Shown here: piece after piece, positions 11,387-40,710 of the stretch
Position numbering within the stretch: position 1 is the stretch's first letter
Layout of the letters: every line of letters starts with the position of its first letter
Source: Oceanispirochaeta sp.
Lineage (GTDB): Bacteria; Spirochaetota; Spirochaetia; DSM-2461
Length of the DNA: 64,000 nucleotides
Assembly (NCBI GenBank): GCA_963666275.2
Contig: CAXXOA010000001.1
Coordinates: 1,024,001 to 1,088,000, forward strand
Reading direction: 5' to 3'
Program-made: the position numbers and the translations under genes
Notes under the pieces: model-generated
Told to the model about the DNA's origin: nothing
What the model saw: the letters and a program-made list of their open reading frames with translations, nothing else
Database searches by the model: none

Positions 11387-12598
11387 CTAATACAAGAATC
11401 CAAAGAGATGTAATGGGATCTCGTATCTGGATCCGTATAATATATCATCTTTTACTAAATAGCTGTTTTCTAAATTTTCCTTTATCTGTTTTCTGTCCTT
11501 ATTTTTTCCACCGACTTCAAAGAAGTTGTTCTGAATCTTAAAATCACCAATTCTGCTCATGTGAACTTTGAGATTGGCGTTTAAAGTCATTCTGATGAAA
11601 AATATTTCTCTCAATGTTCCAATATTGGATTCAAAGCCGATTTCTTCAGCTACAGATTTATATATGTCCGGATTATCAAGAAATATCTTTTCAGTCTGTT
11701 TAAGAACTGCTGATCCTGATTTGTCCATTGATAAAAGAGTAATCACTCCTGTCTCATGCAGTATATTCAGGTAATTCTGTATTGTTTTGTTATCAAGCCC
11801 AAGATTCTTGGCTATGCTGTTCCTGTTCAATTCTCCGGGGGGGATGGTTGCCAGATAGCTGATAATGCGTTTGAAATTTATCAAATTCTCAGTTTTCAAT
11901 TTATAGTGGTTGGATATATCCTCATAAATTGTCTTATCAATGATCCTTAAGATTTTCTGATTGTATGTGGAAATCCCTTCTTGAGCGAAAGGATAATACC
12001 CACACCCTAAATATTCTTTGAAATGACCCCTGAGTTTTGGCACATCGGCTATTTTCGATTCAAAGTTCGACCTATTGGAGATTAAGTCATTAATAGTAAT
12101 TATACCTGTATCAGCGATATCATTGAAAAGGAGATACTCTCTAAATGATAAACCACCAATTCTGTAAATAACTCCTCTTCTGGATAAATCATATGTACCC
12201 TTGATCAGATCAATGCTGGAACTTCCTGAGAAGATGATTTTAATGTCCGGGTAGGCATCATATATATTTTTTAATTCCTGGTTCCAGTTCGGGTATTTAT
12301 GTATTTCATCCAGGAAAAAGTATTTTATACCATTTTCTTCGTATAGATCATTCACAAAATCTATTAAATTGTTTTGGGTGAAATAAATATGGTCTATAGA
12401 TGCATATATAGCTTCGTCAGGATTTGATATATTTTCTTTGATGTATTGAAGTAATAATGTAGTCTTACCCGTACCTCTTGGGCCAATTAACCCTGTAAGT
12501 CGATTCTCTGTATTAAAACTATCAAATATGTATCGGTGGTGAGGGTAGTTAGTCTGACTGAGAAGTCGTTTATATATAGCGATAAAATTATTCTTCAT
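11387..12598 (-). CDS. AAA ATPase (AAA_14/DUF4143-like) (cassette 9)
   Basis: GPRGTGKTT Walker A, FFLDEIH Walker B, FSGSS. Confidence 0.88.
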   Translation of the reverse strand: MKNNFIAIYKRLLSQTNYPHHRYIFDSFNTENRLTGLIGPRGTGKTTLLLQYIKENISNPDEAIYASIDHIYFTQNNLIDFVNDLYEENGIKYFFLDEIHKYPNWNQELKNIYDAYPDIKIIFSGSSSIDLIKGTYDLSRRGVIYRIGGLSFREYLLFNDIADTGIITINDLISNRSNFESKIADVPKLRGHFKEYLGCGYYPFAQEGISTYNQKILRIIDKTIYEDISNHYKLKTENLINFKRIISYLATIPPGELNRNSIAKNLGLDNKTIQNYLNILHETGVITLLSMDKSGSAVLKQTEKIFLDNPDIYKSVAEEIGFESNIGTLREIFFIRMTLNANLKVHMSRIGDFKIQNNFFEVGGKNKDRKQIKENLENSYLVKDDILYGSRYEIPLHLFGFLY

Positions 12599-12665
12599 TG
12601 GAATATACTCTACCTATATGCGTCATAATTATGATTGTACTCCAATATAAATAAATTTCAAGTCT

Positions 12666-12836
12666 ATTTAACACCCAAATATGATGCGAAGCGGCCTGAC
12701 CGAAGGGCAGGTATAGGCGCTTTTCTTGCTCCTTTATTCTAAACACCAGTTCGTTATTTGAGAAGAACAATTACTTTATCGAAGCTATTTCTGCAAGAAA
12801 TGTGATCTATAGCTTCGACTGCATCATTTGTTATCC
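12666..12836 (-). other. Long attC site, intron-free, apparent 4-nt loss next to R''
   Basis: ATTTAAC...GTTATCC; close homologue of the attC at 32548. Confidence 0.8.
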
Positions 12837-13789
12837 AATTTTCTATATCTTGTCATTCTACCTTTACCTGAAGACACAATCCTCTTTTCTTCTAGTAATT
12901 GCTTTAAATCTCTGCTTGCTGTTGCACTAGATATACCTTTACAGACACTCATGTATTCTTTTCTATCAAACCAATCTTCTAGTTTTGATAAAGCTATTTT
13001 TGATCGTTTTTCATAATCAGGATTAACTGGTTTTGATTCATTAATTGTATTTCTTAGAGCTTCATTTATTACGTTCAACATGAATTCAATAAAAACAGTC
13101 GATTTTCCAGTATTATCCGATATTGATAACACTTTATAATACTCTTGCTGATTATCCTTAATTAACTTTTCTATTGGAACAAATTCAAATATCGGATTCA
13201 CATTCATCAATATCCGTGTTTGCCAAAATCTGCCCATACGACCATTTCCATCTTCAAAAGGGTGAATAAATTCCATTTCATAATGAAATACACAGCTTTT
13301 AATGATTTCTTGATCTTCATCGTGTTTTAAATATTGAAATAAATCTTTCATCAAACCTGGTACCATTTCTGAAGTAGGAGCAATATGTGTAACTTCTTTA
13401 CCTTTCATTATCCCAACTTGAGATTTTCGAAATTCACCAGGATTTGGAACTAAACCCTCCATTAAGATCCTATGTGCGTCTAAGAAATCTTTATTACTAT
13501 GTGGTTTAAAGGAATTTAATCGCTCATATGCGACAATTGCATTTTGAACTTCTAGAATATCTTTACTTGGGGCAATTATTCTTTGATTATCAATCAAGGC
13601 AGTAACATTCTCAATATTTAAAGTGTTACCTTCTATTGATAAGGATGATTGAATTGTTTTAATTCTATTTTGTCTTCTGAGTCTTGCTTCTGGTTTTACA
13701 AGCATTAAACTTTGGCAAATACCCAATCCTTCAGTTATTTGACCATATAATTTTAAAATTCGGTTTGTAATTTCATACGGTGGTTTCAT
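12824..13789 (-). CDS. Fic-domain protein (cassette 8)
   Basis: HPFEDGNGRMGR; C-terminal HTH (SSATASRDL). Confidence 0.93.
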   Translation of the reverse strand: MKPPYEITNRILKLYGQITEGLGICQSLMLVKPEARLRRQNRIKTIQSSLSIEGNTLNIENVTALIDNQRIIAPSKDILEVQNAIVAYERLNSFKPHSNKDFLDAHRILMEGLVPNPGEFRKSQVGIMKGKEVTHIAPTSEMVPGLMKDLFQYLKHDEDQEIIKSCVFHYEMEFIHPFEDGNGRMGRFWQTRILMNVNPIFEFVPIEKLIKDNQQEYYKVLSISDNTGKSTVFIEFMLNVINEALRNTINESKPVNPDYEKRSKIALSKLEDWFDRKEYMSVCKGISSATASRDLKQLLEEKRIVSSGKGRMTRYRKLDNK

Positions 13790-13853: not shown

Positions 13854-14004
13854 GGATAACGTCCGGTTCTGTGGAATGCCGTTAAATGGCGCTTTTCTTG
13901 CTTTACTATGTTAACCAGCTTTTTCATAGCTAAAAATGCTTACCGAATTAATAATAAACCCAAAGCAAGAAATGTGACATAGGCATTTCCATAGCAACCG
14001 TTTG
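13854..14004 (-). other. attC site interrupted by intron A (rest of R'' at 15915-15920)
   Basis: GGATAAC...hairpin...TTTG | TTATGT. Confidence 0.85.
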
Positions 14005-15914
14005 GTACGCCTGACATGGCAATAAACTTATGAGTTGAAAGTCCACTACAGCTACCCACGTATAGTAAACATGCTATACCAACTGTTAGCCGACGGCAAG
14101 GGCAATTCCGTGAGGAATTGTCTGGAGGAAGCCTGAGTGCAAAACCGGGAGCCCATGTATAAGAATGTGATATGGAATGCGAGTCACGCAGCATTCCACC
14201 CCCCAGTTCCGGAGGCTGGTCGCAAACAAGTTTGCTGCTCGCCCATGCAGCCTAGGGCGAGTCAGCCAATGATGACGATGCCCCGTGGGTGAGGGATAGG
14301 GTAAATCACAGGGTTGTCCGGCCCTGGTCGTAAACTTCGCTTGCTGCTCGCCCATGCAACCGGGGCATAGTAGCCAACGCCCGGAGTAATGTCCGGTTCA
14401 TGGTGAAGGCCTGAACATTTCACAAGGAGGAGCCTTATGGTTCTCAAAGGAACAATTTCAGTTTATGCCGGAATCACTTTTGGCGGACCATGGAGAAACA
14501 AGCCTTGAACGAATCTATGATGGATTTGATTTTATCCTCTGAAAATATGCACAAAGCCTGGAAACAGGTCAAACGCAATGGAGGTAGCCCTGGAATCGAC
14601 GGTATCACTGTCGAGAAGTTTCCAGGATATCTGAAAACCAGATGGCCTAGAATCAAACGAGCTTTGCTCAACGGGTACTATGTACCTTCTCCGGTGCTGA
14701 GGGTAGAAATCCCGAAGAAATCCGGAGGCTGGTCGCAAACAAGTTTGCTGCTCGCCCATGCAACCGGGGGAAAACGGATGCTGGGAATCCCGACAGTTCT
14801 AGACAGGGTTATCCAGCAGGCTATTTCACAGGTTCTGAATCCCATATTTGATCCGGATTTCTCGGAGCATAGCTATGGATTCAGACCGGGAAGATCGGCT
14901 CACGGAGCAGTGAAACAGGTAAATCAACATGTCAAATCCGGGTATAGATACGCCGTGGATCTGGACTTGGAAAAGTTCTTTGATACAGTTAATCATGATA
15001 TCCTGATGCATTTTGTGGCTGTAAAAGTCTGGGACAAATCTGTCCTCAGACTCATCGGCCGTTACCTGAGAGCCGGTATTCAGTTGGACAATGGAAAAGT
15101 GATTCCTACAGACATCGGCACACCCCAAGGCGGGCCCTTATCACCTCTGCTTTCCAATATCCTCCTTGATCGGTTGGATATGGAACTGGAGAGAAGAAAT
15201 GTGAGGTTCGCACGGTATGCAGATGACACTATCCTTTTAACGAAGAGATTGTGTGATGCTAGGAAGATCCTACAGGAAGTTTCAATATTTCTGGTAAGGA
15301 AATTGAAATTGGTAGTGAATCAGGAGAAAACGAAAGTTGCAAAGATAAGGGAGTGCAGTTTCCTGGGATTCACATTCAAGGGTAAGAAGATTCGCTGGAC
15401 AGAGTCGTCCTTTGAGGATTTTCGGTATCATCTGAAATATCTGACAAGGCGTTCCTGGGGTGTTTCCATGGAATACAGAATCGGGAAACTCAATGAGTAT
15501 ATCCGGGGCTGGATGAACTACTATGGGATCTCCCAATATTACAGCCCTATACAGAATCTTGATGACTGGCTCCTTAGGAGGATTCGCATGTGCTACTGGA
15601 AACAGTGGCGATATCCCAGAACGAAAGTCAGGAAACTGATGGAACTGGGAATTCCGAAAGATTTTGCCATTATCACCGGTGCCAGTAGTAAATCCTATTG
15701 GCATCTCTCCAAGTCTTACGCTACCAATGCAGCTATGTCCAATAAATGGCTGGAAGAGCAGGGATTGGTCAATATCAAATATCTGTGGTGTAAAGCCCAG
15801 GGATATATCTGATCAAATCAGGATTTCGTTTGCTCCATGGAGTGAACCGCCCCGTGCGGACCCGCATGCGGGGTGGTGTGGGGGCTGGAGGTTAAAAGCC
15901 TCCGGCTACCCGAT
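14005..15914 (+). mobile_element. Group IIC-attC intron, species 1, copy A (internally deleted ribozyme)
   Basis: GTACG 5' end, CCCGAT 3' end; about 230 bp present in the other copies is replaced near 14322-14365. Confidence 0.92.
14490..15812 (+). CDS. ltrA: Group II intron RT/maturase without endonuclease domain, with 14-aa insert
   Basis: GTPQGGPLSP, RYADD, domain X. Confidence 0.95.
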   Translation: MEKQALNESMMDLILSSENMHKAWKQVKRNGGSPGIDGITVEKFPGYLKTRWPRIKRALLNGYYVPSPVLRVEIPKKSGGWSQTSLLLAHATGGKRMLGIPTVLDRVIQQAISQVLNPIFDPDFSEHSYGFRPGRSAHGAVKQVNQHVKSGYRYAVDLDLEKFFDTVNHDILMHFVAVKVWDKSVLRLIGRYLRAGIQLDNGKVIPTDIGTPQGGPLSPLLSNILLDRLDMELERRNVRFARYADDTILLTKRLCDARKILQEVSIFLVRKLKLVVNQEKTKVAKIRECSFLGFTFKGKKIRWTESSFEDFRYHLKYLTRRSWGVSMEYRIGKLNEYIRGWMNYYGISQYYSPIQNLDDWLLRRIRMCYWKQWRYPRTKVRKLMELGIPKDFAIITGASSKSYWHLSKSYATNAAMSNKWLEEQGLVNIKYLWCKAQGYI

Positions 15915-15922
15915 TTATGTGG

Positions 15923-16786
15923 TCAATTATTTATTACCAAGTATTCAGTCAAACATAATTGATCATTCTTTTTTCCAATAACAAATAAGATATTTCTTTC
16001 AAAGTCATAATCTATAGAATATATTCTAGTTTCTTCTGAATTTATATTTTCCATTTTTGTTATACCTTCATCAATATTATAAAGCTTGAAATTGTTAATG
16101 CAAGAAGTTAGAAAACGATTATTACCAATATAAACAGCAGATGTTATAAGTTCTTTTTCATCTATTTTATACTTGTCTTCATTATTAGTTATATAATATT
16201 CATATCCTTTATACGGAATATTAATCCCATAAATGAAGTCTTTTGAATTTAATTTATGATCAAAAACCATTAATTCATTTTCTGTAATAACTGTCTCACA
16301 AAAGCCTGAAATTAATGAGTATTTTTGGATCTTTACTTTTTTTTCTCCAGGAAAATATCTCTCAATAAAAAAAGATGTATCAGTATCCCAGAAAATATTC
16401 CTAATGATTAAGAGTTCATCTTTACTTGTAATTAAAGCATCCAAATTTGAATCCAATCTATTCTCTTCAACTAAAGTAATTCCAGAGAACCAACCCGAAT
16501 GCCCTGAAATAAACAATAATGAATTATCCATGAAACTCATGCTAAAGATTGATAGTTCATCAGGAATAAGTGAGCTTATATTATTCCTTTCACCATTTTC
16601 ATCATAAAAATAGAGAGAATGCCCCATCGAAATATAAAAACCATTATTAGTTCCTGAAACAAGTAGTGGTAATCCTTCTCTATTGAAATAGAATTCATCA
16701 ATTTTCTGTAGTTCTAATGAATATAAATTTGTAAATATCAATATGACTAATAAATATGTAATTGCTTTTTTCATCATTAATTCCAT
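15923..16786 (-). CDS. Secreted protein, putative immunity partner (cassette 7)
   Basis: Signal-peptide-like MMKKAITYLLVILIFTNLYS; start overlaps the upstream stop (TAATG). Confidence 0.6.
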   Translation of the reverse strand: MELMMKKAITYLLVILIFTNLYSLELQKIDEFYFNREGLPLLVSGTNNGFYISMGHSLYFYDENGERNNISSLIPDELSIFSMSFMDNSLLFISGHSGWFSGITLVEENRLDSNLDALITSKDELLIIRNIFWDTDTSFFIERYFPGEKKVKIQKYSLISGFCETVITENELMVFDHKLNSKDFIYGINIPYKGYEYYITNNEDKYKIDEKELITSAVYIGNNRFLTSCINNFKLYNIDEGITKMENINSEETRIYSIDYDFERNILFVIGKKNDQLCLTEYLVINN

Positions 16787-17844
16787 TAAAAGTAAAACGT
16801 TGAAGGATTGATTAATTTTCCATTGATATGCGTTCTAAAATCTAAATGTGGATTGGTAGACATGCCAGTTGAGCCGATAGAACCAATTATCTGACCTTGT
16901 TCAACCCATTGCCCATTTTCAACTGAAACTGTTGATAGATGAGAATATTGTGATGAAACTTTAAAGAAGGGAACATCTTTATCATTAGGAAATTGCTTTG
17001 CATAATCAATAAATAAACTGTTACCATAGGCATCAGATAGAGAACTATCAAATCTTATATAACCAGAATGAGCCGCGTATACTGGATCACCAAGAGGACA
17101 ATCATAATCAATCCCACCATGCCATCGGTTGATTTCTTCTCCTTGATAAAACAGCTTACAAAACCCATAATTTTCCGTTACAATTGGATCATCAACAGGA
17201 ACAATAAAACCTAATTCTAACAAACAAGATGGTCTTGTAATTTCAACATAGTGCCTAACAGGGTCACTTGCCTCCAATTGCTCAAAAGAATTATCATACA
17301 TGTCTTTATAATGATCGCTTACATTCTCGTAACAAGCTTTTTTATTCTCCTTTGGAGCAGGAGCGGGTGGAGTTTCTTCCTTCGGAGCAGATTTCATTAT
17401 CGGCTTATCATCATCTTCTCCATCTAGCCATAAATCTTCATAGATTAATTCTATTCTTTCTACTGCGATACCATTTGCTCTAAAATCTAATGTGGGGCCA
17501 ATCCAACGGCAGGGTAAAGCACGAAAGAAATTCCAACGTTTTACTTCTTCACCGCTTTGATCCATTAAAATAACTGAACCGCTTCTCCTTTCTACTGGCT
17601 TGTCGGAATGAATTACATCATAGTACCAACGGTATAAATCATCACAAGTAGAAATACCTTTTTCGAGAATCAAATTTGGGAAACGAGTTCTTCCCTCAAA
17701 TCGATGAATTCCATACCCGCCTTCTTCCACTTCATAAACATATTTTTCTGATTCGAGACCTTCACAACGAGAAAATGTTGTTGTTATGACTCCATCCAGT
17801 TCTAATGCAAAACAATGTGGTAAATAAGAATCTGATCTATTCAT
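16786..17844 (-). CDS. T4 gp19-like tail tube domain fused to M23 peptidase (cassette 7)
   Basis: N-term F..CEGL..E..EGG..NLILEKG..WNFFRALP.RW.GP; Pro-rich linker; C-term HGGID, YSHL, GSTG.STNPHLDF. Confidence 0.85.
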   Translation of the reverse strand: MNRSDSYLPHCFALELDGVITTTFSRCEGLESEKYVYEVEEGGYGIHRFEGRTRFPNLILEKGISTCDDLYRWYYDVIHSDKPVERRSGSVILMDQSGEEVKRWNFFRALPCRWIGPTLDFRANGIAVERIELIYEDLWLDGEDDDKPIMKSAPKEETPPAPAPKENKKACYENVSDHYKDMYDNSFEQLEASDPVRHYVEITRPSCLLELGFIVPVDDPIVTENYGFCKLFYQGEEINRWHGGIDYDCPLGDPVYAAHSGYIRFDSSLSDAYGNSLFIDYAKQFPNDKDVPFFKVSSQYSHLSTVSVENGQWVEQGQIIGSIGSTGMSTNPHLDFRTHINGKLINPSTFYF

Positions 17845-18128
17845 TACTAATCTCCCCAAATAATGATTTCTTGTTTTACATTTAGTAATTTACGTCATTA
17901 ATATATATTGATTCTTTTAATGATTCTTGTCACTAGATAATATGAATTGTTTTTCTTACAAATAACCCATTTTCTTCGTAGCATAATCCTCCACCGGAGG
18001 TTTCTTCCCAATTTTTCTCCCACTGGGGTTTCTTTCTATTTCATACTTATTCTTCCATCCGGCGGAAGAAATCTAATTCTATCCGTATAGTGTAACATAC
18101 AAAGGTGTATAATGAACAGCCGTAACCC

Positions 18129-18233
18129 ACATAACATCGATTTAACTAGCAGACAGATAGCTGGCGGATTCTGTGCCTGCAAAGCAGATAAGCACAGAAT
18201 GTGACCAGCCTGGCTGACTAGTTCAAATCCTTG
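18129..18233 (-). other. attC site interrupted by intron B
   Basis: ACATAAC...hairpin...CTTG | TTAGAT (20265). Confidence 0.88.
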
Positions 18234-20264
18234 GTACGCCTGACATGGCAATAAACTTATGAGGTGAAAGTCCTCTACAGCTACCCACGTATAGTAAACA
18301 TGCTATACCAACTGTTAGCCGACGGCAAGGGCAATTCCGTGAGGAATTGTCTGGAGGAAGCCTGAGTGCAAAACCGGGAGCCCATGTACAAGAATGTGAT
18401 AGAAGGCCCAGTTCTGGAGGTGAGTCAGCCAATGATGACGATGCCCCGTGGGTGAGGGATAGGGTAAATCACAGGGTTGTCCGGGGAATGTTTATTGTCT
18501 TATTCGGGGAGATCTGTCTGCAAGGCGGTAACACCGGTTTGACCGTGAGAATCCGGAGGATACCGGGGTAACAAATCCAGGCCTATCAGGGGATGACACT
18601 CTGATAAGGAGCCGTTTATACGGAACACAAAGAAGTCGTCACAGCGATTCAAACCGGATGATACAGCGTCAGCAGGAGTAATTCAACTGATAAGCAGACA
18701 GAAGTCAGCAGAAGGCATAGTAGCCAACGCCCGGAGTAATGTCCGGTTCATGGTGAAGGTCTGAACATTTCACAAGGAGGAGCCTTATGGTTCTCAAAGG
18801 AACAATTTCAGTTTATGCCGGAATCACTTTTGGCGGACCATGGAGAAACCAGCCTTGAACGAATCTATGATGGATTTGATTTTATCCTCTGAAAATATGC
18901 ACAAAGCCTGGAAACAGGTCAAACGCAATGGAGGTAGCCCTGGAATCGACGGTATCACTGTCGAGAAGTTTCCAGGATATCTGAAAACCAGATGGCCTAG
19001 AATCAAACGAGCTTTGCTCAACGGGTACTATGTACCTTCTCCGGTGCTGAGGGTAGAAATCCCGAAGAAATCCGGAGGCTGGTCGCAAACAAGTTTGCTG
19101 CTCGCCCATGCAACCGGGGGAAAACGGATGCTGGGAATCCCGACAGTTCTAGACAGGGTTATCCAGCAGGCTATTTCACAGGTTCTGAATCCCATATTTG
19201 ATCCGGATTTCTCGGAGCATAGCTATGGATTCAGACCGGGAAGATCGGCTCACGGAGCAGTGAAACAGGTAAACCAACATGTCAAATCCGGGTATAGATA
19301 CGCCGTGGATCTGGACTTGGAAAAGTTCTTTGATACAGTTAATCATGATATCCTGATGCATTTTGTGGCTGTAAAAGTCCGGGACAAATCTGTCCTCAGA
19401 CTCATCGGCCGTTACCTGAGAGCCGGTATTCAGTTGGACAATGGAAAAGTGATTCCTACAGACATCGGCACACCCCAAGGCGGGCCCTTATCACCTCTGC
19501 TTTCCAATATCCTCCTTGATCGGTTGGATATGGAACTGGAGAGAAGAAATGTGAGGTTCGCACGGTATGCAGATGACACTATCCTTTTAACGAAGAGATT
19601 GTGTGATGCTAGGAAGATCCTACAGGAAGTTTCAATATTTCTGGTAAGGAAATTGAAATTGGTAGTGAATCAGGAGAAAACGAAAGTTGCAAAGATAAGG
19701 GAGTGCAGTTTCCTGGGATTCACATTCAAGGGTAAGAAGATTCGCTGGACAGAGTCGTCCTTTGAGGATTTTCGGTATCATCTGAAATATCTGACAAGGC
19801 GTTCCTGGGGTGTTTCCATGGAATACAGAATCGGGAAACTCAATGAGTATATCCGGGGCTGGATGAACTACTATGGGATCTCCCAATATTACAGCCCTCT
19901 ACAGAACCTTGATGACTGGCTCCGTAGGAGGATTCGCATGTGCTACTGGAAACAGTGGCGATATCCCAGAACGAAAGTCAGGAAACTGATGGAACTGGGA
20001 ATTCCGAAAGATTTTGCCATTATCACCGGTGCCAGTAGTAAATCCTATTGGCATCTCTCCAAGTCTTACGCTACCAATGCAGCTATGTCCAATAAATGGC
20101 TGGAAGAGCAGGGATTGGTCAATATCAAATATCTGTGGTGTAAAGCCCAGGGATATATCTGATCAAATCAGGATTTCGTTTGCTCCATGGAGTGAACCGC
20201 CCCGTGCGGACCCGCATGCGGGGTGGTGTGGGGGCTGGAGGTTAAAAGCCTCCGGCTACCCGAT
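18234..20264 (+). mobile_element. Group IIC-attC intron, species 1, copy B (2031 bp)
   Basis: GTACG...CCCGAT; DV GAACCGCCCCGTGCGGACCCGCATGCGGGGTGGT. Confidence 0.95.
18840..20162 (+). CDS. ltrA: Group II intron RT/maturase with 14-aa insert
   Basis: YADD; near-identical to the other species 1 copies. Confidence 0.95.
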   Translation: MEKPALNESMMDLILSSENMHKAWKQVKRNGGSPGIDGITVEKFPGYLKTRWPRIKRALLNGYYVPSPVLRVEIPKKSGGWSQTSLLLAHATGGKRMLGIPTVLDRVIQQAISQVLNPIFDPDFSEHSYGFRPGRSAHGAVKQVNQHVKSGYRYAVDLDLEKFFDTVNHDILMHFVAVKVRDKSVLRLIGRYLRAGIQLDNGKVIPTDIGTPQGGPLSPLLSNILLDRLDMELERRNVRFARYADDTILLTKRLCDARKILQEVSIFLVRKLKLVVNQEKTKVAKIRECSFLGFTFKGKKIRWTESSFEDFRYHLKYLTRRSWGVSMEYRIGKLNEYIRGWMNYYGISQYYSPLQNLDDWLRRRIRMCYWKQWRYPRTKVRKLMELGIPKDFAIITGASSKSYWHLSKSYATNAAMSNKWLEEQGLVNIKYLWCKAQGYI

Positions 20265-20273
20265 TTAGATTGT

Positions 20274-21299
20274 CTATATATATAAATCAATTCCTCCAAA
20301 TTCTTTTACAAAATCAATAATGGTTTTAATATTTTGTAATGATCTATATTTCTCAAGAAAATCTATTTGTCTTTTATCAAAGTAAATTAACAAAATACAA
20401 GCATGACTACGTGTTTCCTCATGAATTGTTTCATCTGCGATAATTTCTCTTAAATATTCAATTTTATTACTATTACAATTAATAATAGCTTCAACAGACT
20501 GTCCAATACTGCCTCTTTGGATCCCAATCTCTGGATTAATAAATTCTAACAGTTTAATTATTGTTTTTTTGGGGATATTTGCTAATAAAATCTTTGCATA
20601 ATTTCGTGTTTCGTCAGTAAGTTGTGTTCCTGTATAGAAGATATCTGGATGTCCTGGAACATGAGCAATATAATAAATTAGTTGACTTGAAATGTCATAG
20701 ATCGTTGAAGAAGTTATATAATCAATAAAAATATCCCATATAACTTTTTCATTTTTATAATTGCTAAATAGAATCGATGAACCGAGCGAGTGTTCTTGGA
20801 TGATATCGGATTTGAAGAGTTCTATACTTTCCTCTATAGTCAATTCTGGTATCTTTCGAATCATTTGTGGTAGAAATAGATTTGAAAAACTTTTCTTTTC
20901 AATAATATTTGTTCTATTTAGAAATATTTTGATTGAAGTATCATTAGGAAAATCATGCAAATATTTTTTAATGTCAATCCAATATGCTTTATCATTTTGA
21001 TCATCATATACTATTCCATGTACAGGCAAGGAATAATTCGACCAGTAATCACGATGATCTTCAATTTGAAAAAAAGCATAATCACGTTTTTTAGAAAAAT
21101 ATGATTTTCCTGATTTGATCTGATATGCAATAGAAGTATTAGTTGGGGAACCATTTAAAAAGAATTCAATTATACAATCTATTCCAAAATCATTTTCTTG
21201 TTCAATTTTATGGAAAATAGATCCAGATTCTTCCACTAGTGACTTAATAAAGTTTATTCCACGTTTTGCTGTTATTGATGATGGTTTCAATTTACCCAA
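20274..21299 (-). CDS. DUF4365-like (PD-(D/E)XK) protein (cassette 6)
   Basis: ENDFGIDCIIE...QIKSG N-terminal motif. Confidence 0.78.
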   Translation of the reverse strand: MGKLKPSSITAKRGINFIKSLVEESGSIFHKIEQENDFGIDCIIEFFLNGSPTNTSIAYQIKSGKSYFSKKRDYAFFQIEDHRDYWSNYSLPVHGIVYDDQNDKAYWIDIKKYLHDFPNDTSIKIFLNRTNIIEKKSFSNLFLPQMIRKIPELTIEESIELFKSDIIQEHSLGSSILFSNYKNEKVIWDIFIDYITSSTIYDISSQLIYYIAHVPGHPDIFYTGTQLTDETRNYAKILLANIPKKTIIKLLEFINPEIGIQRGSIGQSVEAIINCNSNKIEYLREIIADETIHEETRSHACILLIYFDKRQIDFLEKYRSLQNIKTIIDFVKEFGGIDLYI

Positions 21300-21327
21300 A
21301 ATTTACCCTTTCCGTTTCTTGCAATAA

Positions 21328-22032
21328 TTATTTCTTTTTCCCTTTATAATAAAATCCTAATATTTTGTAGAAATGATCTCTATAATCATCATTCTCAGGA
21401 ATATTATAATTTTTTTTATCGAATTTCGCTGCATAAAAAACTTTCAATTCCCAGCATACATTAGCTGTGTTTAACGATTTTAAATGACCTTTATATTTAT
21501 TGAAAACTTTTTTTATCTTAATCTTATTGTCCATAATATTTGTGATATCAACAACAAATGGTAAATAAGCTTCTTTAAAACAATTTTCACCTGTTCTATC
21601 CTGAAAATCGAAAAGTTCAGTCATTCTTTTTAAGTCTTTCAAAATTTCTTTTTTGGAAGGGGAATCTCTTTTCACTTCAATACAATATCTCGAATGATTA
21701 ATTCCTTGAATATTTTCATAGATGCAAATATCCATATTCCCATTTCTTTTTGTATTCTTAATTTTTGAAATAATCATCTTTGCAAAACCAAATTCATCTC
21801 CTTTATCCTCTGTTGATAACAGCGGTACACAACTTCTTGCGAATTTTTTTGTTGATTCTTCAACTTTTATAATCCATGGGTCTATTGGACAATCTTTGAT
21901 TTCAGCGACCGATTTAGCTATATTTACAGTCAATAAATACTCAGGGAAATCATAATTATTTATTTCACCAGTAAATAACTCTAAATCACTGTATGTGTTT
22001 TTTATTCCCTTTTTAATTTTGTCTTCAATCAT
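21328..22032 (-). CDS. Putative PD-(D/E)XK nuclease-fold protein (cassette 6)
   Basis: PEYLLT..DICIYE..CIEVKR..DLKRM. Confidence 0.6.
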   Translation of the reverse strand: MIEDKIKKGIKNTYSDLELFTGEINNYDFPEYLLTVNIAKSVAEIKDCPIDPWIIKVEESTKKFARSCVPLLSTEDKGDEFGFAKMIISKIKNTKRNGNMDICIYENIQGINHSRYCIEVKRDSPSKKEILKDLKRMTELFDFQDRTGENCFKEAYLPFVVDITNIMDNKIKIKKVFNKYKGHLKSLNTANVCWELKVFYAAKFDKKNYNIPENDDYRDHFYKILGFYYKGKKK

Positions 22033-22144: not shown

Positions 22145-24118
22145 GTACGCCCGGCATGGGTATCAACTTATGGGGTGAAAGTCCCCTGCAGGTTCTCACA
22201 GATAGTTAATGCTATCCAAACTGCTAGCCAGAGGCAAGGGCATCTTCGTGAGGAGTTGTCTGAAGGAAGCCCGACGGCAAAACCGGGAACCGATGAACAA
22301 AAATGTGATATAAGGCCTAGTTTCAGAGACGAGTTAGCTAACGATAACGATGTCCGGTGAGAGTGAAACAGGGTAAATCACACGGTTGTCCGGGGAAAGC
22401 TGATACCCTTATCCGGGGAGGCCTGTTTGCACGGCGATTTTGATGAAGACCTTTCGGAATAATCGGCAGAAGGATGCCGATCAAAGCAAATCCCGGCTGT
22501 TCACAAGGTGGCAATTGTGAAACGGAGCCATCATCCGATGGAACACAAAATGATGTCACAGAAAGTTCTTCATGGAAAGCATTAGTGGTAGCAATTTCAC
22601 TGATTAGCAGACAGGAGTCAGCAGAAGGCATAGTAGCCAACGCCCGGAGTAATGCCCGGTTCACGGCGAAGGCCTGAACATTTCACAAGGAGGAGCCTTA
22701 TGGTTCTCAGGAACAAAACTATTTCTGGCGGATCATGGAGAAACCAGCCTTGAACAACACCTTGATGGATCTGATTCTTACATCGGAAAACATGCACAAA
22801 GCCTGGAAGCAGGTGAAGAGCAACGGAGGAAGTCCCGGAGTTGACGGCATAACCGTCGAAGAATTCCCGGCATACCTTCGGAATCGATGGGAAAGGGTCA
22901 GGCGAGCTTTGCTTTTTGGGTACTACGTGCCCTCTCCGGTTAAACGGGTCGAAATCCCCAAGAAATCCGGAGGAAAACGAATACTGGGTATCCCGACAGT
23001 ACTCGACCGGGTTATCCAGCAAGCCATTACACAGGTTCTGAGTCCGATCTTCGATCCCGATTTTTCGGATTGCAGTTTTGGATTCAGGCCGGGAAAATCG
23101 GCTCATGGAGCAGTGAAGAAGGTTCAGAGCTATGTTGTATCAGGATATGGCTATGCTGTGGATCTGGACTTGGAAAAGTTCTTTGATACAGTCAATCATG
23201 ATATTCTGATGCATCTGGTCGGCCGGAAAGTCCGGGACAAGAAAGTCCTCAGGTTGATCGGTCGGTACCTTAGAGCCGGAATTCTGGATAAAGAAGGAAA
23301 TAACCTTCCAACTGTTGTTGGGACTCCTCAAGGAGGCCCTCTTTCTCCGCTTCTTTCAAATATCCTTTTGGATCAGTTTGATAAGGAGCTGGAAAGACGT
23401 AAGTTATTGTTTTCCCGATATGCTGATGATGCCATAATTTTGGTCCGAAATCAGCATGAAGGATCTCGACTTCTATCAGAGGTCTCCAGCTTCCTGAGCA
23501 GGAAACTGAAACTCATTGTCAATGAGGAAAAGAGTAAGGTTGCACCGATAAGAGATTGTTCATTCCTGGGTTTTACCTTCATCGGGGGAAAGATCCGCTG
23601 GACAGAAAAGGCGTACCAGGATTTCCGTTACAACATCAGACGTTTGACTGGACGATCATGGGGTGTTTCCATGAAATACCGCTATAGCAAACTGAATCAA
23701 TACTTGAGAGGCTGGATGAATTACTATGGTATTTCCGAATACTACAGGCCGATTCCGGGACTTGAAGAATGGCTCAGAAGGAGAATCCGTATGTGCTACT
23801 GGAAACAGTGGCGCAGATGTCGAACAAAAGTCAACAACTTGATCAAACTAGGGATTCCGGTGCGTGCTGCTATACCTGCCGGTACATGCAGCCACTCTTA
23901 CTGGAAGATGTCGAAGACTTACACAACGAATGCAGGTCTATCCAATAAATGGCTGGAAGAGCAGGGACTAGTCAGTATTAAAGCCCTTTGGTGCAAAGCC
24001 CAAGGGTATACTTGACCAGATTGAGGAAGCTGTTTGCTTCATGAAATGAACCGCCCTGTGCGGATCCGCTTGCAGGGTGGTGTGGGGACTGGGGGAGAGA
24101 AACCCCCGGTTACCCGAT
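22145..24118 (+). mobile_element. Group IIC-attC intron, species 2 (1974 bp)
   Basis: GTACGCCCGGCATGG 5' end, TACCCGAT 3' end; sequence clearly diverged from species 1. Confidence 0.93.
22735..24015 (+). CDS. ltrA: Group II intron RT/maturase, species 2
   Basis: GTPQGGPLSP, RYADD. Confidence 0.95.
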   Translation: MEKPALNNTLMDLILTSENMHKAWKQVKSNGGSPGVDGITVEEFPAYLRNRWERVRRALLFGYYVPSPVKRVEIPKKSGGKRILGIPTVLDRVIQQAITQVLSPIFDPDFSDCSFGFRPGKSAHGAVKKVQSYVVSGYGYAVDLDLEKFFDTVNHDILMHLVGRKVRDKKVLRLIGRYLRAGILDKEGNNLPTVVGTPQGGPLSPLLSNILLDQFDKELERRKLLFSRYADDAIILVRNQHEGSRLLSEVSSFLSRKLKLIVNEEKSKVAPIRDCSFLGFTFIGGKIRWTEKAYQDFRYNIRRLTGRSWGVSMKYRYSKLNQYLRGWMNYYGISEYYRPIPGLEEWLRRRIRMCYWKQWRRCRTKVNNLIKLGIPVRAAIPAGTCSHSYWKMSKTYTTNAGLSNKWLEEQGLVSIKALWCKAQGYT

Positions 24119-24122
24119 TATT

Positions 24123-24310
24123 TCATATAGTTTTTAGCCTAAATCTAATTGATGAAGGGCTAAAACCCATTTTTTCATAAAAACCAATTGCATTACTGTT
24201 GTTTGCAAATACTGATAGACGTATATCAGTCAACCCTTTTTCTCTTATCCATTCTAATCCATGCATGAATAAGCTTTTCCCAATTCCTCGTTTACGTATT
24301 CCTTCGGTTA
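24123..24310 (-). pseudogene. 3' half of a GNAT acetyltransferase cassette gene (cassette 5), truncated by IS3
   Basis: Manual translation: RKRGIGKSLF..IRLSVFANNSNAIGFYEKMGF..KTI*. Confidence 0.85.
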
Positions 24311-24340
24311 TGAACCACCCCGAGAATCCCGGAGACAGAT

Positions 24341-25246
24341 TTACTTGAGTCCGGCTGTTACTGCCAGACTAATTTCCTGTTCATAATACATCATTTCAAA
24401 CTCTTGTGGAGAAATATATCCCAGAGGTTCCATGATCCGTTTGTTATTATACCAATCCACCCAGTCTAAAGTAGCCAGTTCAACCTGTTCAATCGAGCGC
24501 CAGGGACCATCTTTGTGAATGACTTCTGCCTTGTATAGACCGTTTATTGTCTCTGCCAGAGCATTGTCATAAGAGTCACCTTTACTCCCAACTGATGGAT
24601 CAATTCCTGCTTCAATAAGTCGTTCTGTATAGGAAATAGCCAGATATTGAGAACCACGATCACTATGATGGATCAGCTTTTCTGTTACCTGTCTTGCCCA
24701 CAATGCCTGATTGAGTGCATCCAAAGTAAAATCCGTTTTCATTGACGTTGATGCCCGCCACCCGACAATCATTCTTGAAAATACATCAATTATGAAAGCA
24801 ACATAAACAAATCCCCTCCAAGTGGAAACATAGGTGAAGTCAGCCACCCACAGCTCGTTTGGCCTGGAAGCAGTGAAATCCCGGTTTACAAGATCATCAG
24901 GCCTGTTATCTTTCGTCGGAATCGTTGTCCTGACTTTCTTACCACGAATTACACCACGAAGCCCCATGGCACGCATTAAACGCTCTACAGTGCATCTGGC
25001 GACGGGGATTCCTTCTTTATTCATGGCCTGCCAGACTTTTTTAGCTCCATATACACATCTATTCTCAAACCAGACCCGTTTGATTTCATCTTTCAGGTGG
25101 TTATCCCTTTTTACTCTTGGAGGCTCTCTGTCTGGATCTGATTGCCGTGATTTCATTTCGTAATAGGTTGATGGAGCTATCTGAATATTCTTACAGAGAG
25201 GCTCGACTCCATGATTTTCCCTATTCTTATCAATGAAATTGACCAT
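24341..25246 (-). CDS. IS3 transposase OrfB (DDE)
   Basis: WVADFTYV, HHSDRGSQY, DNALAE. Confidence 0.95.
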   Translation of the reverse strand: MVNFIDKNRENHGVEPLCKNIQIAPSTYYEMKSRQSDPDREPPRVKRDNHLKDEIKRVWFENRCVYGAKKVWQAMNKEGIPVARCTVERLMRAMGLRGVIRGKKVRTTIPTKDNRPDDLVNRDFTASRPNELWVADFTYVSTWRGFVYVAFIIDVFSRMIVGWRASTSMKTDFTLDALNQALWARQVTEKLIHHSDRGSQYLAISYTERLIEAGIDPSVGSKGDSYDNALAETINGLYKAEVIHKDGPWRSIEQVELATLDWVDWYNNKRIMEPLGYISPQEFEMMYYEQEISLAVTAGLK

Positions 25247-25566
25247 TATTTCTTTCGGCGGTCGAGCTCCGCCTGGGCGAAATATGCTGATGCCTTACGC
25301 AATATCTCATTGGCTTCTCTTAGCTCACGAACTTCTCTTTCAAGTTCCTTTATTCTTGCCCGTTCTTCACTGGAGACGCCTTCCTTGATACCACGGTCTA
25401 TCTCGGTTTGTTTTACCCATTTTCTCAGAGACTCCGGAGTACACCCGGTTTTTGAGGCTATTGAAATTATTGCTGCCCACCGTGATTCATAGTCTTTTTC
25501 ATGATCAAAGACCATCCTGACTGCCCGCTCTTTAACTTCTTGAGCATACCTGATTCTTTTTCCCAT
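25246..25566 (-). CDS. IS3 transposase OrfA (HTH, leucine zipper)
   Basis: [27 protein letters not shown]. Confidence 0.93.
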
Positions 25567-25616
25567 AACACAATCCTCTCATATAATTGTGTCTCCGGGA
25601 AACCCGGGGTGGTTCA

Positions 25617-26318
25617 CGGTATGCAGATGACACTATCCTTTTAACGAAGAGATTGTGTGATGCTAGGAAGATCCTAAAGGAAGTTTCAATATTTCTGGTA
25701 AGGAAATTGAAATTGGTAGTGAATCAGGGAAAAACGAAAGTTGCAAAGATAACGGAATGCAGCTTCCTGGGGTTCACATTCAAGGGTAAGAAGATTCGCT
25801 GGACTGAGTCGTCTTTTGAGGATTTTCGGTATCAACTGAAATATCTGACAAGGCGTTCCTGGGGTGTTTCCATGGAATACAGAATCGGGAAACTCAATGA
25901 GTATATCCGGGGCTGGATGAACTACTATGGGATCTCCCAATATTACAGCCCTCTACAGAACCTTGATGACTGGCTCCGTAGGAGGATTCGCATGTGCTAC
26001 TGGAAACAGTGGCGATATCCCAGAACGAAAGTCAGGAAACTGATGGAACTGGGAATTCCGAAAGATTTTGCCATTATCACCGGTGCCAGTAGTAAATCCT
26101 ATTGGCATCTCTCCAAGTCTTACGCTACCAATGCAGCTATGTCCAATAAATGGCTGGAAGAGCAGGGATTGGTCAATATCAAATATCTGTGGTGTAAAGC
26201 CCAGGGATATATCTGATCAAATCAGGATTTCGTTTGCTCCATGGAGTGAACCGCCCCGTGCGGACCCGCATGCGGGGTGGTGTGGGGGCTGGAGGTTAAA
26301 AGCCTCCGGCTACCCGAT
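25617..26318 (+). mobile_element. 5'-truncated species 1 intron (copy D'), starting at the RYADD codons
   Basis: Carries the same variants as the 3' part of copy D; ends CCCGAT before TTATATGT. Confidence 0.92.
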
Positions 26319-34809: not shown

Positions 34810-35337
34810 TTATGTGCTGAACCGTTCACGCGTTATATCAAGCAGTTGTGTAACAGGTATCTTCTCATTAGTCTCATCATTGAAAACATATTCATCTACC
34901 ATTCTATCGATAAACAAAACCCCATCTAAATGGTCAATTTCATGTTGAAAGCACCGAGCCATTTGATCATTTGTCACAATTATATGAAAATCTCCGAATC
35001 TATCCTGATATTTGACTGTTATTTCTTTATAGCGAATGACCTTTCCCCAAAAACCTGGCAGCGAAAGACATCCTTCAAGATCTGATTGTTCTCCTGATTT
35101 CTCCAATATTTCAGGATTAATTAATTCATAATGCTCTCCCATATAATCAATCACTGTTATTCTTTTTAAAATAGATATTTGTGGTGCTGCCAGTGCTGCA
35201 CCACCAGCGTGATTTCTTAATGTATTTGATATAATATCAATCTTATTGTGTAGTCCTTTATGAAATATATTGATAAGCGAACATTGAGCTCTTAAACGAC
35301 TATCTCCGAATAGTATAATATTTCTTTGTTTACTCAT
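34810..35337 (-). CDS. def: Peptide deformylase (cassette 2)
   Basis: GAALAAPQ, EGCLS, HEIDHLDG; start uncertain (35337, 35355 or 35373). Confidence 0.92.
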   Translation of the reverse strand: MSKQRNIILFGDSRLRAQCSLINIFHKGLHNKIDIISNTLRNHAGGAALAAPQISILKRITVIDYMGEHYELINPEILEKSGEQSDLEGCLSLPGFWGKVIRYKEITVKYQDRFGDFHIIVTNDQMARCFQHEIDHLDGVLFIDRMVDEYVFNDETNEKIPVTQLLDITRERFST

Positions 35338-35433
35338 ATAAAGTCTATCCTTCATGTCTAAACGGCTTTGCACATAACGTCCAAGACTATACTAAGTATT
35401 TACCAAATAGGGGTAAATATCCAGCTCTTGTAG

Positions 35434-39314: not shown

Positions 39315-39330
39315 AATTATTCCTATATAG

Positions 39331-39374: not shown

Positions 39375-39407
39375 TCCCTTTTACCCTCTGTCAATAACGA
39401 AAAAATA

Positions 39408-39486: not shown

Positions 39487-40710
39487 ATGAATTTCAGGGA
39501 GTATTTACAGAAAAAGGCCGGGATTCCGCAAAAGCAGATTCCTTTTTTTGAGCATTGGATAACACGGTACAACAACTATCAGAATCAGTTTCCTGATTCT
39601 TTCAGTCTGTCCGGATTTGAGAAGACCCTTCTCAGGGACTGTCAGGACTGGCAGATCAATCAGGCTGTCAGTGCGGTAAAGCATTATGAATATTTTATCC
39701 ATCACTATCAGCAGGGGAGTTCCGGTCAAGCGGAGGGGCAATCCGACTGGGAAACAGCTATCACCAGGATGAAAGAGATGCTGCGGCTCAGGCACCGTTC
39801 TTTTCAAACGGAAAAAGCCTATCTGCATTGGGTAGACTCGTTTAAAGATTTTACTGGTAATAAATCTCCCGATGAGCTGGATGAGAAGGATTTTAGATCT
39901 TTTTTAACTTATCTGGCGGTGGAGCGGAAGGTTTCCATGTCTACTCAGAATCAGGCGTTTAATGGAATCCTTTTTCTTTACAGGTCTGTACTGGACAGGG
40001 AGGTTCAAGACCTTCAGGATTCTGTACGGTCAAAAATACCCGCCAGACTGCCTGTGGTTCTCTCCAAAGAGGAAATTTCCCGGATCCTTTCGGTATTGAA
40101 TCCTCCCTATAGGCTTATGGCTTCCCTTATTTATGGATCCGGACTTCGACTGGACGAGTGCCTTTCATTGAGAATCAAAGATCTGGATTTTTATAAACCC
40201 TCCCTCACTGTCCGGATGGGGAAGGGAGGGCGGGACAGGACGACTCTTCTGCCTTCGGGGTTAATCCCCCCCCTGCAGAAGCATCTGGAGGATGTTAAAA
40301 TACTTTACGACAGGGACAGACGGGAGAAAAATCCGGGAGTTTCCCTGCCCGAAGCGCTGGCAGGAAAGTATCCCCATGCTCCGGAAGAGTGGAACTGGTT
40401 CTGGCTGTTTCCCTCTTCCGGGTTCTGTGAAAGTCCCTACGATCAGAAACAGGTTCGCTTCCATCAGCATCCTACAGGACTGCAAAGGGCTTTTAAAAAT
40501 GCCGTTTCCCGTGGGGGAATCACAAAAAAAGCCAGCGTTCATACCCTGCGGCACAGTTTTGCTACCCATCTGCTGGAAGCGGGGTACGACATCCGGACCA
40601 TTCAGGAACTGATGGGCCACTCTTCTGTGCAGACCACCATGATCTATACCCATGTGGCGGGTAAAAACAGAATGGGAGTTGTCAGCCCCGCCGATTCTCT
40701 GTTTCTCTGA
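39487..40710 (+). CDS. intI: Integron integrase with N-terminal extension
   Basis: YGSGLR, HTLRHSFATHLL, ELMGHS..TTMIYTHV; integron-specific insert LPEALAGKYP..EWNWFWLFPS. Confidence 0.95.
   Translation: MNFREYLQKKAGIPQKQIPFFEHWITRYNNYQNQFPDSFSLSGFEKTLLRDCQDWQINQAVSAVKHYEYFIHHYQQGSSGQAEGQSDWETAITRMKEMLRLRHRSFQTEKAYLHWVDSFKDFTGNKSPDELDEKDFRSFLTYLAVERKVSMSTQNQAFNGILFLYRSVLDREVQDLQDSVRSKIPARLPVVLSKEEISRILSVLNPPYRLMASLIYGSGLRLDECLSLRIKDLDFYKPSLTVRMGKGGRDRTTLLPSGLIPPLQKHLEDVKILYDRDRREKNPGVSLPEALAGKYPHAPEEWNWFWLFPSSGFCESPYDQKQVRFHQHPTGLQRAFKNAVSRGGITKKASVHTLRHSFATHLLEAGYDIRTIQELMGHSSVQTTMIYTHVAGKNRMGVVSPADSLFL

Follow-up and report, generated by a model that had tools for sequence, protein, structure and literature searches.

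The cassette and its two genes

We analysed a 64,000-nucleotide stretch of the chromosome of an Oceanispirochaeta sp. (contig CAXXOA010000001.1, G000:C1:1024001-1088000 in our genome numbering), referred to below as the window, in which an integron cassette carries a gene joining a contractile injection system (CIS) tube domain to an M23 peptidase domain, followed by a gene for a putative periplasmic partner. An earlier reading of the DNA letters (the original prediction) had proposed that these two open reading frames (ORFs) form a plug-in effector and immunity module for an extracellular CIS (eCIS), exchanged as a cassette. The cassette and its parts are as follows.

15915..18134, minus strand: gene cassette, from the crossover TT of R' to the remainder of R'' (single copy, 25-38% GC)
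17845..18134, minus strand: non-coding leader 5' of ORF1 (290 nt)
16786..17844, minus strand: ORF1, 352 aa, CIS tube domain, linker and M23 peptidase, a putative specialised effector (Pfam, AlphaFold2, Foldseek, NCBIfam)
17431..17844, minus strand: tube domain of ORF1, aa 1-138, of gp19/TIGR02241 type, probably Cis5-like (Pfam, TIGR02241)
17236..17430, minus strand: acidic, Pro-rich linker of ORF1, aa ~139-203, predicted to be disordered (AlphaFold2 pLDDT)
16789..17235, minus strand: M23 (LytM-type) domain of ORF1, aa ~204-352 (Pfam, Pgp3 match, Foldseek)
15923..16786, minus strand: ORF2, a 287-aa orphan with a signal-peptide-like N-terminus, a putative periplasmic immunity protein (co-fold with M23)

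The two ORFs are coupled, as had been proposed: adjacent and co-oriented in the layout of effector-immunity pairs, they share a single base in TAATG at 16786-16788. ORF1 likely starts at ATG 17844 (352 aa) rather than at TTG 17859 (357 aa), since a Shine-Dalgarno sequence (GGGGAG) lies 7 nt upstream of the former and the database copy P0001 is 352 aa long. Both of the domains originally read from the letters are recognised above family cut-offs. At the N-terminus, Phage_T4_gp19 (PF06841; 8.4e-28, 97.3 bits, cut-off 28.2; residues 17-143 in the 357-aa numbering) is matched over almost its full length (profile positions 5-133 of 134), and TIGR02241 scores 93.9 bits (cut-off 62.4); at the C-terminus, Peptidase_M23 (PF01551) scores 5.6e-22 and 78.2 bits (cut-off 28.7; residues 247-352 in the 357-aa numbering). 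The Pfam scan returned gp19 and M23 only and no Hcp domain, PADLOC gave ORF1 no defence-family match, and ORF1 reads as a protein without a signal peptide.

Structural comparisons agree with these assignments. Solved CIS tubes match residues of about 2-141, among them Pvc5 (1.5e-10), AlgoCIS (2.7e-9), Afp1 (1.9e-7) and a cyanobacterial CIS, and M23 structures match residues 204-350, with Pgp3 (6jmx) at 1e-15. In the AlphaFold2 model the confidence score (pLDDT) is below 50 at residues 137-208 and 73-96 in blocks covering 241-340; the poorly ordered stretch bears out the acidic, Pro-rich linker described earlier (PKEETPPAPAPK at 154-165 in the 352-aa numbering, which is used from here on). In a Foldseek search with the model, many M23 structures ranked first, at a probability of 1.0 (for LytM-domain chains, for instance, TMt was 0.71-0.81), and CIS tubes from Streptomyces, PVC and AlgoCIS came next.

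The peptidase motifs are HGGID (242-246), YSHL (300-303) and PHLDF (332-336). H242xxxD246, H302 and H333 are kept and the second His of HxH is replaced by D335, leaving four of the five catalytic or ligand positions in place. That second His is a zinc ligand in LytM enzymes, and Asp is a common zinc ligand. The original prediction had flagged the HLD reading as a reason to question activity; the replacement stands, but it is common to P0127 and P0128, the two M23 relatives that come closest in a database of 5.8 billion proteins (38-39% identity), which also read GPHLDF and carry Csd3-type N-domains. HxD is thus best read as a subfamily trait, and because Asp commonly binds zinc and a cleft-binding partner has been retained, we predict that the domain is, on balance, active. 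In its fold, HxxxD, SHL His and first HxH His, the domain resembles the LytM/M23 endopeptidases (C. jejuni Pgp3, H. pylori Csd3, ShyA, lysostaphin, LytM); it departs from them in the Asp it has in common with P0127 and P0128, in having neither a signal peptide nor Csd3-type N-domains, and in being joined to a tube domain.

ORF2 begins with a hydrophobic, signal-peptide-like stretch (MKKAITYLLVILIFTNLYS), a call made by eye rather than by a predictor, and belongs to no family in Pfam, NCBIfam or PADLOC. A word-seeded database search with ORF2 found only itself, and a HMMER scan of 1.84 billion representatives returned five weak, partial matches (E 1e-7 to 5e-4, 27-113 residues) that we regard as compositional. 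AlphaFold2 without an alignment gave a pLDDT of 39.7 for ORF2 alone, and its look-alikes in the Atlas, from beta-propeller, WD40 and DUF4221 clusters (scores 0.91-0.92), reach a recognition value of 2064, below the mark of 2300, and serve as a lead only.

The two proteins were also folded together. M23 residues 196-352 (with alignment A3) and ORF2 residues 25-287 (without an alignment) gave a median interface score (ipSAE) of 0.85, against 0.20 for the best of three controls. Among solved complexes 116 of 157 attain the mark used, and among mismatched pairs 2 of 215 do, counts that are rough for this pair since our own alignment was used. The runs agree in at least 93% of contacts, with a pLDDT of at least 83 for ORF2. 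On the enzyme, the modelled interface comprises D246, residues 304-306 (beside H302), 325-333 and D335, the last two being the HxD strand and its preceding loop. The model therefore supports ORF2 as a plug of the M23 catalytic cleft, in line with the partnership originally proposed. No solved M23-inhibitor complex of the cleft-plug kind is known to us, and ORF2 is an orphan, so it seems unlikely that the pass reflects structures memorised by the model.

The integron features that delimit the cassette are these.

15915..15922, minus strand: what is left of R'' in the cassette's own attC (the plus strand reads TTATGTGG); 8 bases, separated from the rest by intron A
13855..14004, minus strand: remaining part of the cassette's attC, with the R' complement GGATAAC (13854-13860), L boxes and a long imperfect hairpin
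18127..18233, minus strand: attC of the upstream cassette, whose R' supplies the G of G|TTATGTGG; intron B lies next to it
14005..15914, plus strand: group II intron A, antisense inside the cassette's attC, with a reverse transcriptase (RT)/maturase at 14490-15812 (Rfam RF02001; Pfam RVT_1 and GIIM)
18234..20264, plus strand: group II intron B, in the upstream attC (Rfam, end alignment)
39487..40710, plus strand: integron integrase gene intI, divergent from the array (TIGR02249, Pfam)
about 39337-39486: attI, with its core AGACATAAC at 39329-39337

The tyrosine recombinase at 39487-40707 scores 389.4 bits on the TIGR02249 model 'integron integrase' (cut-off 265). The platform forms the right end of a low-GC block (~8.5-39.4 kb) in which 1-kb windows of 23-34% GC, mostly cassette DNA, are interleaved with segments of 42-50% GC, and the cassettes run leftward on the minus strand. 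As the original prediction had it, the two ends of the ORF1-ORF2 cassette correspond: the minus strand reads GTTATGTGG from 18135 to 18127, and its inverted partner R'' is TTATGTGG on the plus strand at 15915-15922. The cassette starts as G|TTATGTGG at 18135/18134 of the minus strand, which is of the crossover type G|TTRRRY, and its own R'' reads CCACATAAC once intron A is ignored. The first 8-9 nt of the cassette are identical to its own R''; five other cassettes of the array and attI follow the same rule, so that the boundaries are not due to chance. The attC sites were judged by alignment and DNA folding rather than by an attC covariance model: bottom strands at three sites form long imperfect hairpins (z -7.1, -4.8 and -3.9), the fold of 18127-18236 in the upstream attC reaching -28 kcal/mol (z -7.1), and the cassette's own attC (13855-14004) reaches -22.2 kcal/mol (z -3.6, with 0 of 200 shuffles folding as well). 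Across the array, the attC sites are alike, with common GGCG...TGTGAC arms, although the cassette DNA is of 23-34% GC in a genome of ~50%.

An independent short-read contig of 2369 nt, from three DNA runs of one sample, spans 15891-18259 with 0 differences and breaks off within introns A and B; it is covered at a depth of ~10, whereas most intron bins have 45-130. These introns, each ~1.9-2.0 kb and on the opposite strand, split both attC sites beside the cassette within the R box, a feature absent from the original prediction, whose boundaries otherwise hold. Since both R boxes are split, excision by IntI should be blocked, and we infer that the cassette is no longer excisable today; 'exchanged as a cassette' applies to the past of the module.

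A 2013 report (PMC3607928) names Treponema as the only spirochaete clade found to carry integrons. The host of the present integron falls in one family of our phylum sample (f1), and the genomes with Treponema-type fusions, described below, in another (f2).

The host injection system and the relatives of the fusion

Within the window the fusion is the only gp19 or sheath match, and no other tail gene was found among the 20 ORFs scanned there (~6.6-41.8 kb), as previously noted. The machine that the original prediction had placed elsewhere has a counterpart in the host genome, where an eCIS-like locus lies at ~2.184-2.222 Mb of the same contig (G000:C1), 1.14 Mb from the cassette. Three gp19 matches occur in the genome, the fusion and two at C1:2.20-2.21 Mb, and sheath genes adjoin the latter two. 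One gene group of the locus encodes FHA and VWA proteins, a sheath (511 aa), a tube, a LysM protein (206 aa) and a VgrG-related hub (349 aa), together with a radical-SAM-like protein, an AAA ATPase, a pentapeptide-repeat protein and three eCIS_core (DUF4157) proteins. The other encodes gp25, Baseplate_J (1006 aa), a 183-aa ORF, a sheath (407 aa), a tube (142 aa), Tail_P2_I and two Phage_base_V proteins, one of which has a sub-threshold PAAR match (25.3 bits, cut-off 27). By its gene content, this locus is of eCIS type. The cap/terminator family PF14065 had no match in the host genome, a result made uninformative by a control that likewise matched nowhere.

Three further features of the host genome were noted. 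The radical-SAM-like protein, a Fer4_12 match, lies between the hub and the AAA ATPase (L007:13415-13969 and 17624-19176, G000:C1 ~2.199-2.205 Mb). The FHA and VWA genes stand upstream of the host sheath, and on the second contig of another genome of the phylum sample, G307, the sheath likewise has FHA-like and VWA-sized ORFs upstream of it. A third sheath match (PF04984, 35.9 bits) belongs to a series of 24 ORFs, all in one orientation, with the look of a myovirus-type prophage (L009, G000:C1:1630000-1649999). That the fusion itself is a prophage remnant was ruled out: its gene stands between attC sites, and the third sheath (C1:1.64 Mb) has no tube of gp19 type.

The N-terminus of the fusion is 60-61% identical over 139 aa to the tube adjacent to the 511-aa sheath and 26% identical to the 142-aa tube. 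To ask which of the two eCIS tube paralogues it resembles, scores on the NCBIfam models CIS5_fam and CIS1_fam may be compared, bearing in mind that all tube scores lie far below the equivalog cut-offs (260 for CIS5, NF053770; 220 for CIS1_fam). The fusion scores 57.4 bits on CIS5_fam against 28.8 on CIS1_fam, and the host sheath-adjacent tube 64.5 against 37. The plain tube of G307 scores 76 against 51, and Treponema-type fusions 75 against 48-51 and 69 against 47; the order is reversed for the 142-aa host tube (53 on CIS1, 43 on CIS5). In both the host and the second contig of G307, the plain paralogue stands in the gene order sheath, tube, LysM, VgrG-related, which we take to be the order of pvc4-5-7-8. 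These relative scores and the synteny lead us, with moderate confidence, to regard the fused domain as a Cis5/Pvc5-like tube adaptor paralogue rather than a bulk tube protein. Along ~120-135 residues, in its fold and in the gene order of its plain paralogue, it resembles the Cis1 and Cis5 tubes of known eCIS (Afp1/Afp5, Pvc1/Pvc5, AlgoCIS, Anabaena, Streptomyces). Unlike those tubes, which are of 140-152 aa and have no extension, ORF1 has ~214 additional residues that include an enzyme, is encoded 1.14 Mb from the machine locus and misses the equivalog cut-offs.

ORF1 is one member of a family with diverse C-termini. PF06841 is found in at least 68 proteins (from 120 listed of 146 matches above threshold), and among these matches listed nine proteins carry M23, including ORF1, 34 carry NlpC/P60, one carries DUF6883 and 24 have no second Pfam domain. 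By reading their printed C-termini, we assigned the 24 to six further unrelated classes (of five, four, six, three, three and one members) and two truncated NlpC/P60 proteins; a Pfam scan of nine of them found the tube domain only, save for two sub-threshold matches in P0022, and DUF6883 was confirmed in P0015. The matches listed would thus hold about nine unrelated C-terminal modules. Named sources are 'phage tail proteins' of Treponema and Spirochaetales, with the exception of P0011, from a metagenome-assembled genome labelled Clostridiaceae. In a maximum-likelihood tree of 43 tube domains, a single clade with near-zero branches carries M23, NlpC/P60 and three unknown C-termini; because near-identical tube domains carry different C-termini, toxins appear to have been swapped on a constant handle. 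The tube domain of the cassette falls outside this Treponema clade, and 5.8 billion database proteins held no closer tube than those of the host family.

Among 38 genomes of the order, six have the plain tube and only the host has a fused one. Four of the 401 genomes in the phylum sample have a close match, and the three with a fused copy (the host, G189 and G307) each have a plain copy as well. In G307 the plain tube sits in the CIS locus on the second contig, and the first contig bears an island of three fused genes and two N-terminal remnants, with a signal-peptide ORF after each fused gene and additional partner-like ORFs in between. Elsewhere, a single M23-type pair lies between arginine-biosynthesis genes (L011), and a locus with two fused genes (L013) has a strong hairpin repeat at its start and upstream of the first of them (z -6.9 and -5.0) and a weaker one (z -2.35) just upstream of the second, hairpins that are at most candidate attC sites. 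C-terminal variants, which the original prediction had proposed to look for beside attC sites, are thus plentiful, but most relatives sit in effector islands that are not integrons, so the cassette setting is unusual for the family rather than its rule.

All seven fused genes whose downstream gene was read (one each in the window, L011, L012 and L040, and three in L036) are followed within ~25 nt by a co-oriented ORF with a hydrophobic start. Co-variation of partner and toxin was seen in one comparison, of two related M23-type pairs from Treponema, whose toxins are 69% identical and whose partners are homologous (E 1.4e-8). A partner of NlpC/P60 type has an orphan paralogue nearby (46% identity). 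The M23 domain of the cassette is 26-29% identical to the Treponema M23 modules, and ORF2 is unrelated to their partners, as expected for a different toxin lineage.

Two further paralogues in G307 (579 and 525 aa; L037:9341-14228 on the first contig) have an N-terminus in common with the VgrG-related CIS hub (578 aa; L039:12273-14009). They lie far from the CIS locus, and the small ORFs that follow each of them include some with a hydrophobic start; the two paralogues may constitute 'specialised hub/spike' effector modules, a counterpart of the tube fusions.

A putative specialised tube effector and its proposed immunity protein

We consider it likely, with a rough probability of 0.65, that an integron has captured, as a cassette, a specialised CIS tube or tube-adaptor effector with an M23 warhead together with its periplasmic immunity protein. 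None of the three sequence-level outcomes that would have counted against the original prediction was seen: the N-terminus is a CIS tube domain, an eCIS-like locus exists in the host and C-terminal variants abound, and ORF2 co-folds onto the M23 cleft with clean controls. ORF1 would be a specialised inner-tube subunit, in which 138 N-terminal residues forming a complete gp19-type, Cis5/Pvc5-like domain take the place of one subunit in the stacked tube of a CIS whose genes lie elsewhere, and a disordered linker of ~65 residues tethers a LytM/M23 peptidoglycan endopeptidase. Contraction would drive the tube and its covalently attached enzyme into a neighbouring diderm cell, where the M23 domain would cut peptidoglycan cross-links in the periplasm. 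ORF2, exported to the periplasm of the producer, would block the M23 cleft of enzyme arriving from sister cells. If a single adaptor ring is replaced, each particle would hold at most six fusions. The pair may have been captured as a cassette and now stands in an array of conflict genes with intron-invaded attC sites.

A close functional parallel is the specialised ('evolved') Hcp of type VI secretion (T6SS) in Enterobacteriaceae (Hcp-ET1-5), in which an N-terminal tube subunit is likewise joined to a C-terminal toxin in an auxiliary module away from the main locus. Specialised Hcp effectors have their immunity gene directly downstream. The N-terminus of ORF1, unlike theirs, is of gp19/PF06841 (TIGR02241) type rather than Hcp, the fused paralogue is adaptor-like (Cis5), the module lies on an integron cassette and the host machine is eCIS-like, with a Cis15-type AAA ATPase, DUF4157/eCIS_core proteins and a LysM initiator, rather than a T6SS. 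By analogy, then, ORF1 would work like a specialised Hcp without being a member of the Hcp family; the original comparison with an evolved Hcp stands as regards the eCIS-like machine and the tube-fused module, and is refined in that the fused domain resembles a Cis5-type adaptor more than the bulk tube. PMC8262886 defines the specialised Hcp category by more than 60 additional C-terminal residues. Cargo of known eCIS (toxins linked to DUF4157/PVC-metallopeptidase, signal-tagged Pvc payloads, Mif1) is delivered by the same machine type, but is non-covalent or marked by DUF4157, whereas the toxin of ORF1 is fused to a tube subunit and has its partner adjacent to it. Some eCIS payloads are antibacterial, including the peptidoglycan hydrolase EAT10, according to PMC8213781, and many toxins of PVC type have no adjacent immunity gene, according to PMC3482391. 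With the polymorphic toxins (CDI, Rhs, and those linked to VgrG or PAAR), the family has in common a constant N-terminal trafficking domain, swappable C-termini, cognate and orphan immunity genes and displaced N-terminal remnants; what sets it apart is that trafficking is assigned to a CIS tube subunit. In the 2012 survey of such toxins (PMC3482391), 'tail tube' occurs 0 times within the first 300,000 characters, where gp19 is mentioned only as a part of the machine. Full-text literature searches and the accessible text of PMC8213781, PMC12210884 and PMC3482391, subscription papers and supplements aside, yielded neither an eCIS effector fused to a tube nor a CIS effector carried by an integron cassette.

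Several observations weigh against the specialised-effector reading. Treponema fusions are 79-80% identical to the resident tube, but the value here is 61%, no higher than that between the host and Treponema tubes (61%), and in the tree the fusion tube domain has a long branch (0.54) and is placed as sister group of the host-family tubes (97/83), not among them; because of this identity and branch, the compatibility of the fusion with the host CIS is uncertain. The GC content of the cassette (25-38%, and 37% in its tube domain, against 47% for the host tube gene) indicates that it is probably foreign. The cassette lies ~21 kb from attI, behind five antisense introns, and no sigma-70-like promoter was found on the minus (coding) strand of the 290-nt leader. 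The canonical M23 motif set is incomplete, D335 standing for the second HxH His; in our own reading of alignment A3, 46 rows have His at this position and ORF1 is the sole M23 row without it, the other non-His rows carrying C-termini that are not M23. The Cis5-like assignment rests on relative sub-threshold scores and synteny, and solved structures are split, with Pvc5 (1.5e-10) ahead of Pvc1 (5.9e-6) and Afp1 (1.9e-7) ahead of Afp5 (8.2e-7). ORF2 has no homologue in two whole-database searches, and the co-fold is a model and not a measurement.

The main rival draws on several of these points. It accepts the pair as a genuine member of the tube-toxin and immunity family and proposes that it is a stranded passenger from an unknown low-GC source, mismatched to the host CIS, silent and locked in place by introns, so that at most ORF2 would be of use, as acquired immunity. 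The 61% identity, against ~80% in the Treponema genomes, fits such a fate, as do the low GC (25-38% in the cassette, ~50% in the genome), a leader without a promoter-like site, the intron-split attC sites on both sides and the position of ORF1 as the sole fused tube among the 38 genomes of the order. Yet neither ORF is disrupted and the two are coupled, the tube domain clusters with host-family tubes with support of 97/83, the 5.8 billion database proteins hold no closer tube, and the likeness of the attC sites throughout the array fits a lineage-specific cassette pool; we therefore consider this outcome unlikely, if the strongest of the competitors. It is considerably less probable that the M23 domain is a tail-associated lysin, comparable to the T4 gp5 lysozyme or T6SS proteins of TagX type, which opens peptidoglycan for the passage or assembly of the tube and is restrained by ORF2. 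The covalent joining of an enzyme to a structural subunit is consistent with a lysin, and at least two of the C-terminal classes are peptidoglycan hydrolases (M23 and NlpC/P60, 43 of 68 among the matches listed); a structural lysin, however, would be expected in the CIS locus and to be conserved, and the family instead has three hallmarks of effectors with immunity proteins, namely C-termini that are polymorphic although the N-termini are almost identical, a G307 island with orphan partner genes as well as truncated remnants of N-termini, and an exported partner (by its signal-like start) that blocks the cleft in the co-fold model. Least probable of all, and in our view very improbable, is that the protein has no part in a CIS, its gp19 fold being re-used as an oligomerisation or wall-binding module of a LytM factor such as an amidase activator, with ORF2 as the periplasmic partner. 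Although HxD departs from the canonical motif and the degenerate LytM domains EnvC and SpoIIQ are among the fold and sequence matches, ORF1 has no signal peptide, its gp19 profile is matched along nearly the whole length, fused tubes occur only alongside a resident CIS (three of three genomes searched), and most catalytic positions are kept, with the HxD itself recurring in the two nearest full-length M23 relatives.

If the specialised-effector reading of the cassette is extended to its relatives, spirochaete CIS may employ an undescribed class of polymorphic toxins, in which a single-ring, Cis5-like adaptor acts as the delivery handle for swapped modules, an eCIS-type machine serves as an interbacterial weapon with cognate periplasmic immunity, and integrons and Treponema recombination islands are the platforms of exchange. 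We hold this wider proposal more tentatively, at slightly less than even odds. Were it true, exchange of a single six-subunit ring could give a particle a new payload. How payloads are loaded is understood less well than any other step of eCIS, and this limits their re-engineering as tools for protein delivery; a family in which cargo is covalently joined to a tube or tube adaptor, with interchangeable C-termini, would provide a simple loading rule, and would indicate that eCIS-type machines, like the T6SS, are used by bacteria to attack the peptidoglycan of other bacteria in conflicts that involve immunity proteins. The module suggests that syringe payloads are swapped as plug-in units, and a secretion-system effector module on an integron cassette would widen the known trade of integrons and add to the defence-like genes of the array.

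Introns and neighbouring cassettes of the array

Group II introns, at least seven in number, are inserted in successive attC sites of this one chromosomal array, all antisense to the cassettes, at about 14005-15914, 18234-20264, 22150-24120, 24150-26270, 28020-30005, 32715-34700 and 35530-37555. They account for the higher-GC segments of the block, run on the plus strand and were matched six times by Rfam model RF02001 (the D1-D4 model); a repeat finder returned seven copies of the 3' part of the intron. Alignment of their ends placed every intron at the same spot of its attC (..TTG/TTATGT), where it splits the R'' box after the hairpin, so that the plus strand, which is the attC bottom strand, reads RYYYAAC, hairpin, ..TTG, intron, TTATGT.. 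in this order. Antisense insertion after the hairpin of the attC bottom strand is the habit of the group IIC-attC intron class, which the present introns resemble in their orientation relative to the cassettes and their position within the complement of R''. They differ in that at least seven attC sites of one chromosomal array have been taken, and they are separate from the effector itself.

Six introns are 96-100% alike over most compared stretches, and the third (C) is 61-79% identical. Intron A has 69-70% identity in its 5' 300 nt, an RF02001 match of 232 rather than 166 nt and no RF01998 match. Six of the intron ORFs are intact RT/maturases of 426-440 aa, and the seventh is a 209-aa fragment. 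The latter (25587-26216) is the remnant of the fourth intron, which was broken by an IS3-family element at 24341-25600 with an rve integrase (24341-25246) and an ALIL frameshift pseudoknot (RF01497, 25172-25288).

Cassettes close to the ORF1-ORF2 pair (11387-13789 and 20274-22032) match the defence models SoFic (2.2e-48), PDC-S01 (AAA_14/DUF4143; 1.9e-30) and Tin (6.9e-41), and a DUF4365 protein of a nearby cassette matches the Aga REase domain model (1.3e-20). Further cassettes encode a peptide deformylase (34810-35373), a DUF6119 protein (30051-31736) and large orphans (26319-27893 and 37560-39314).

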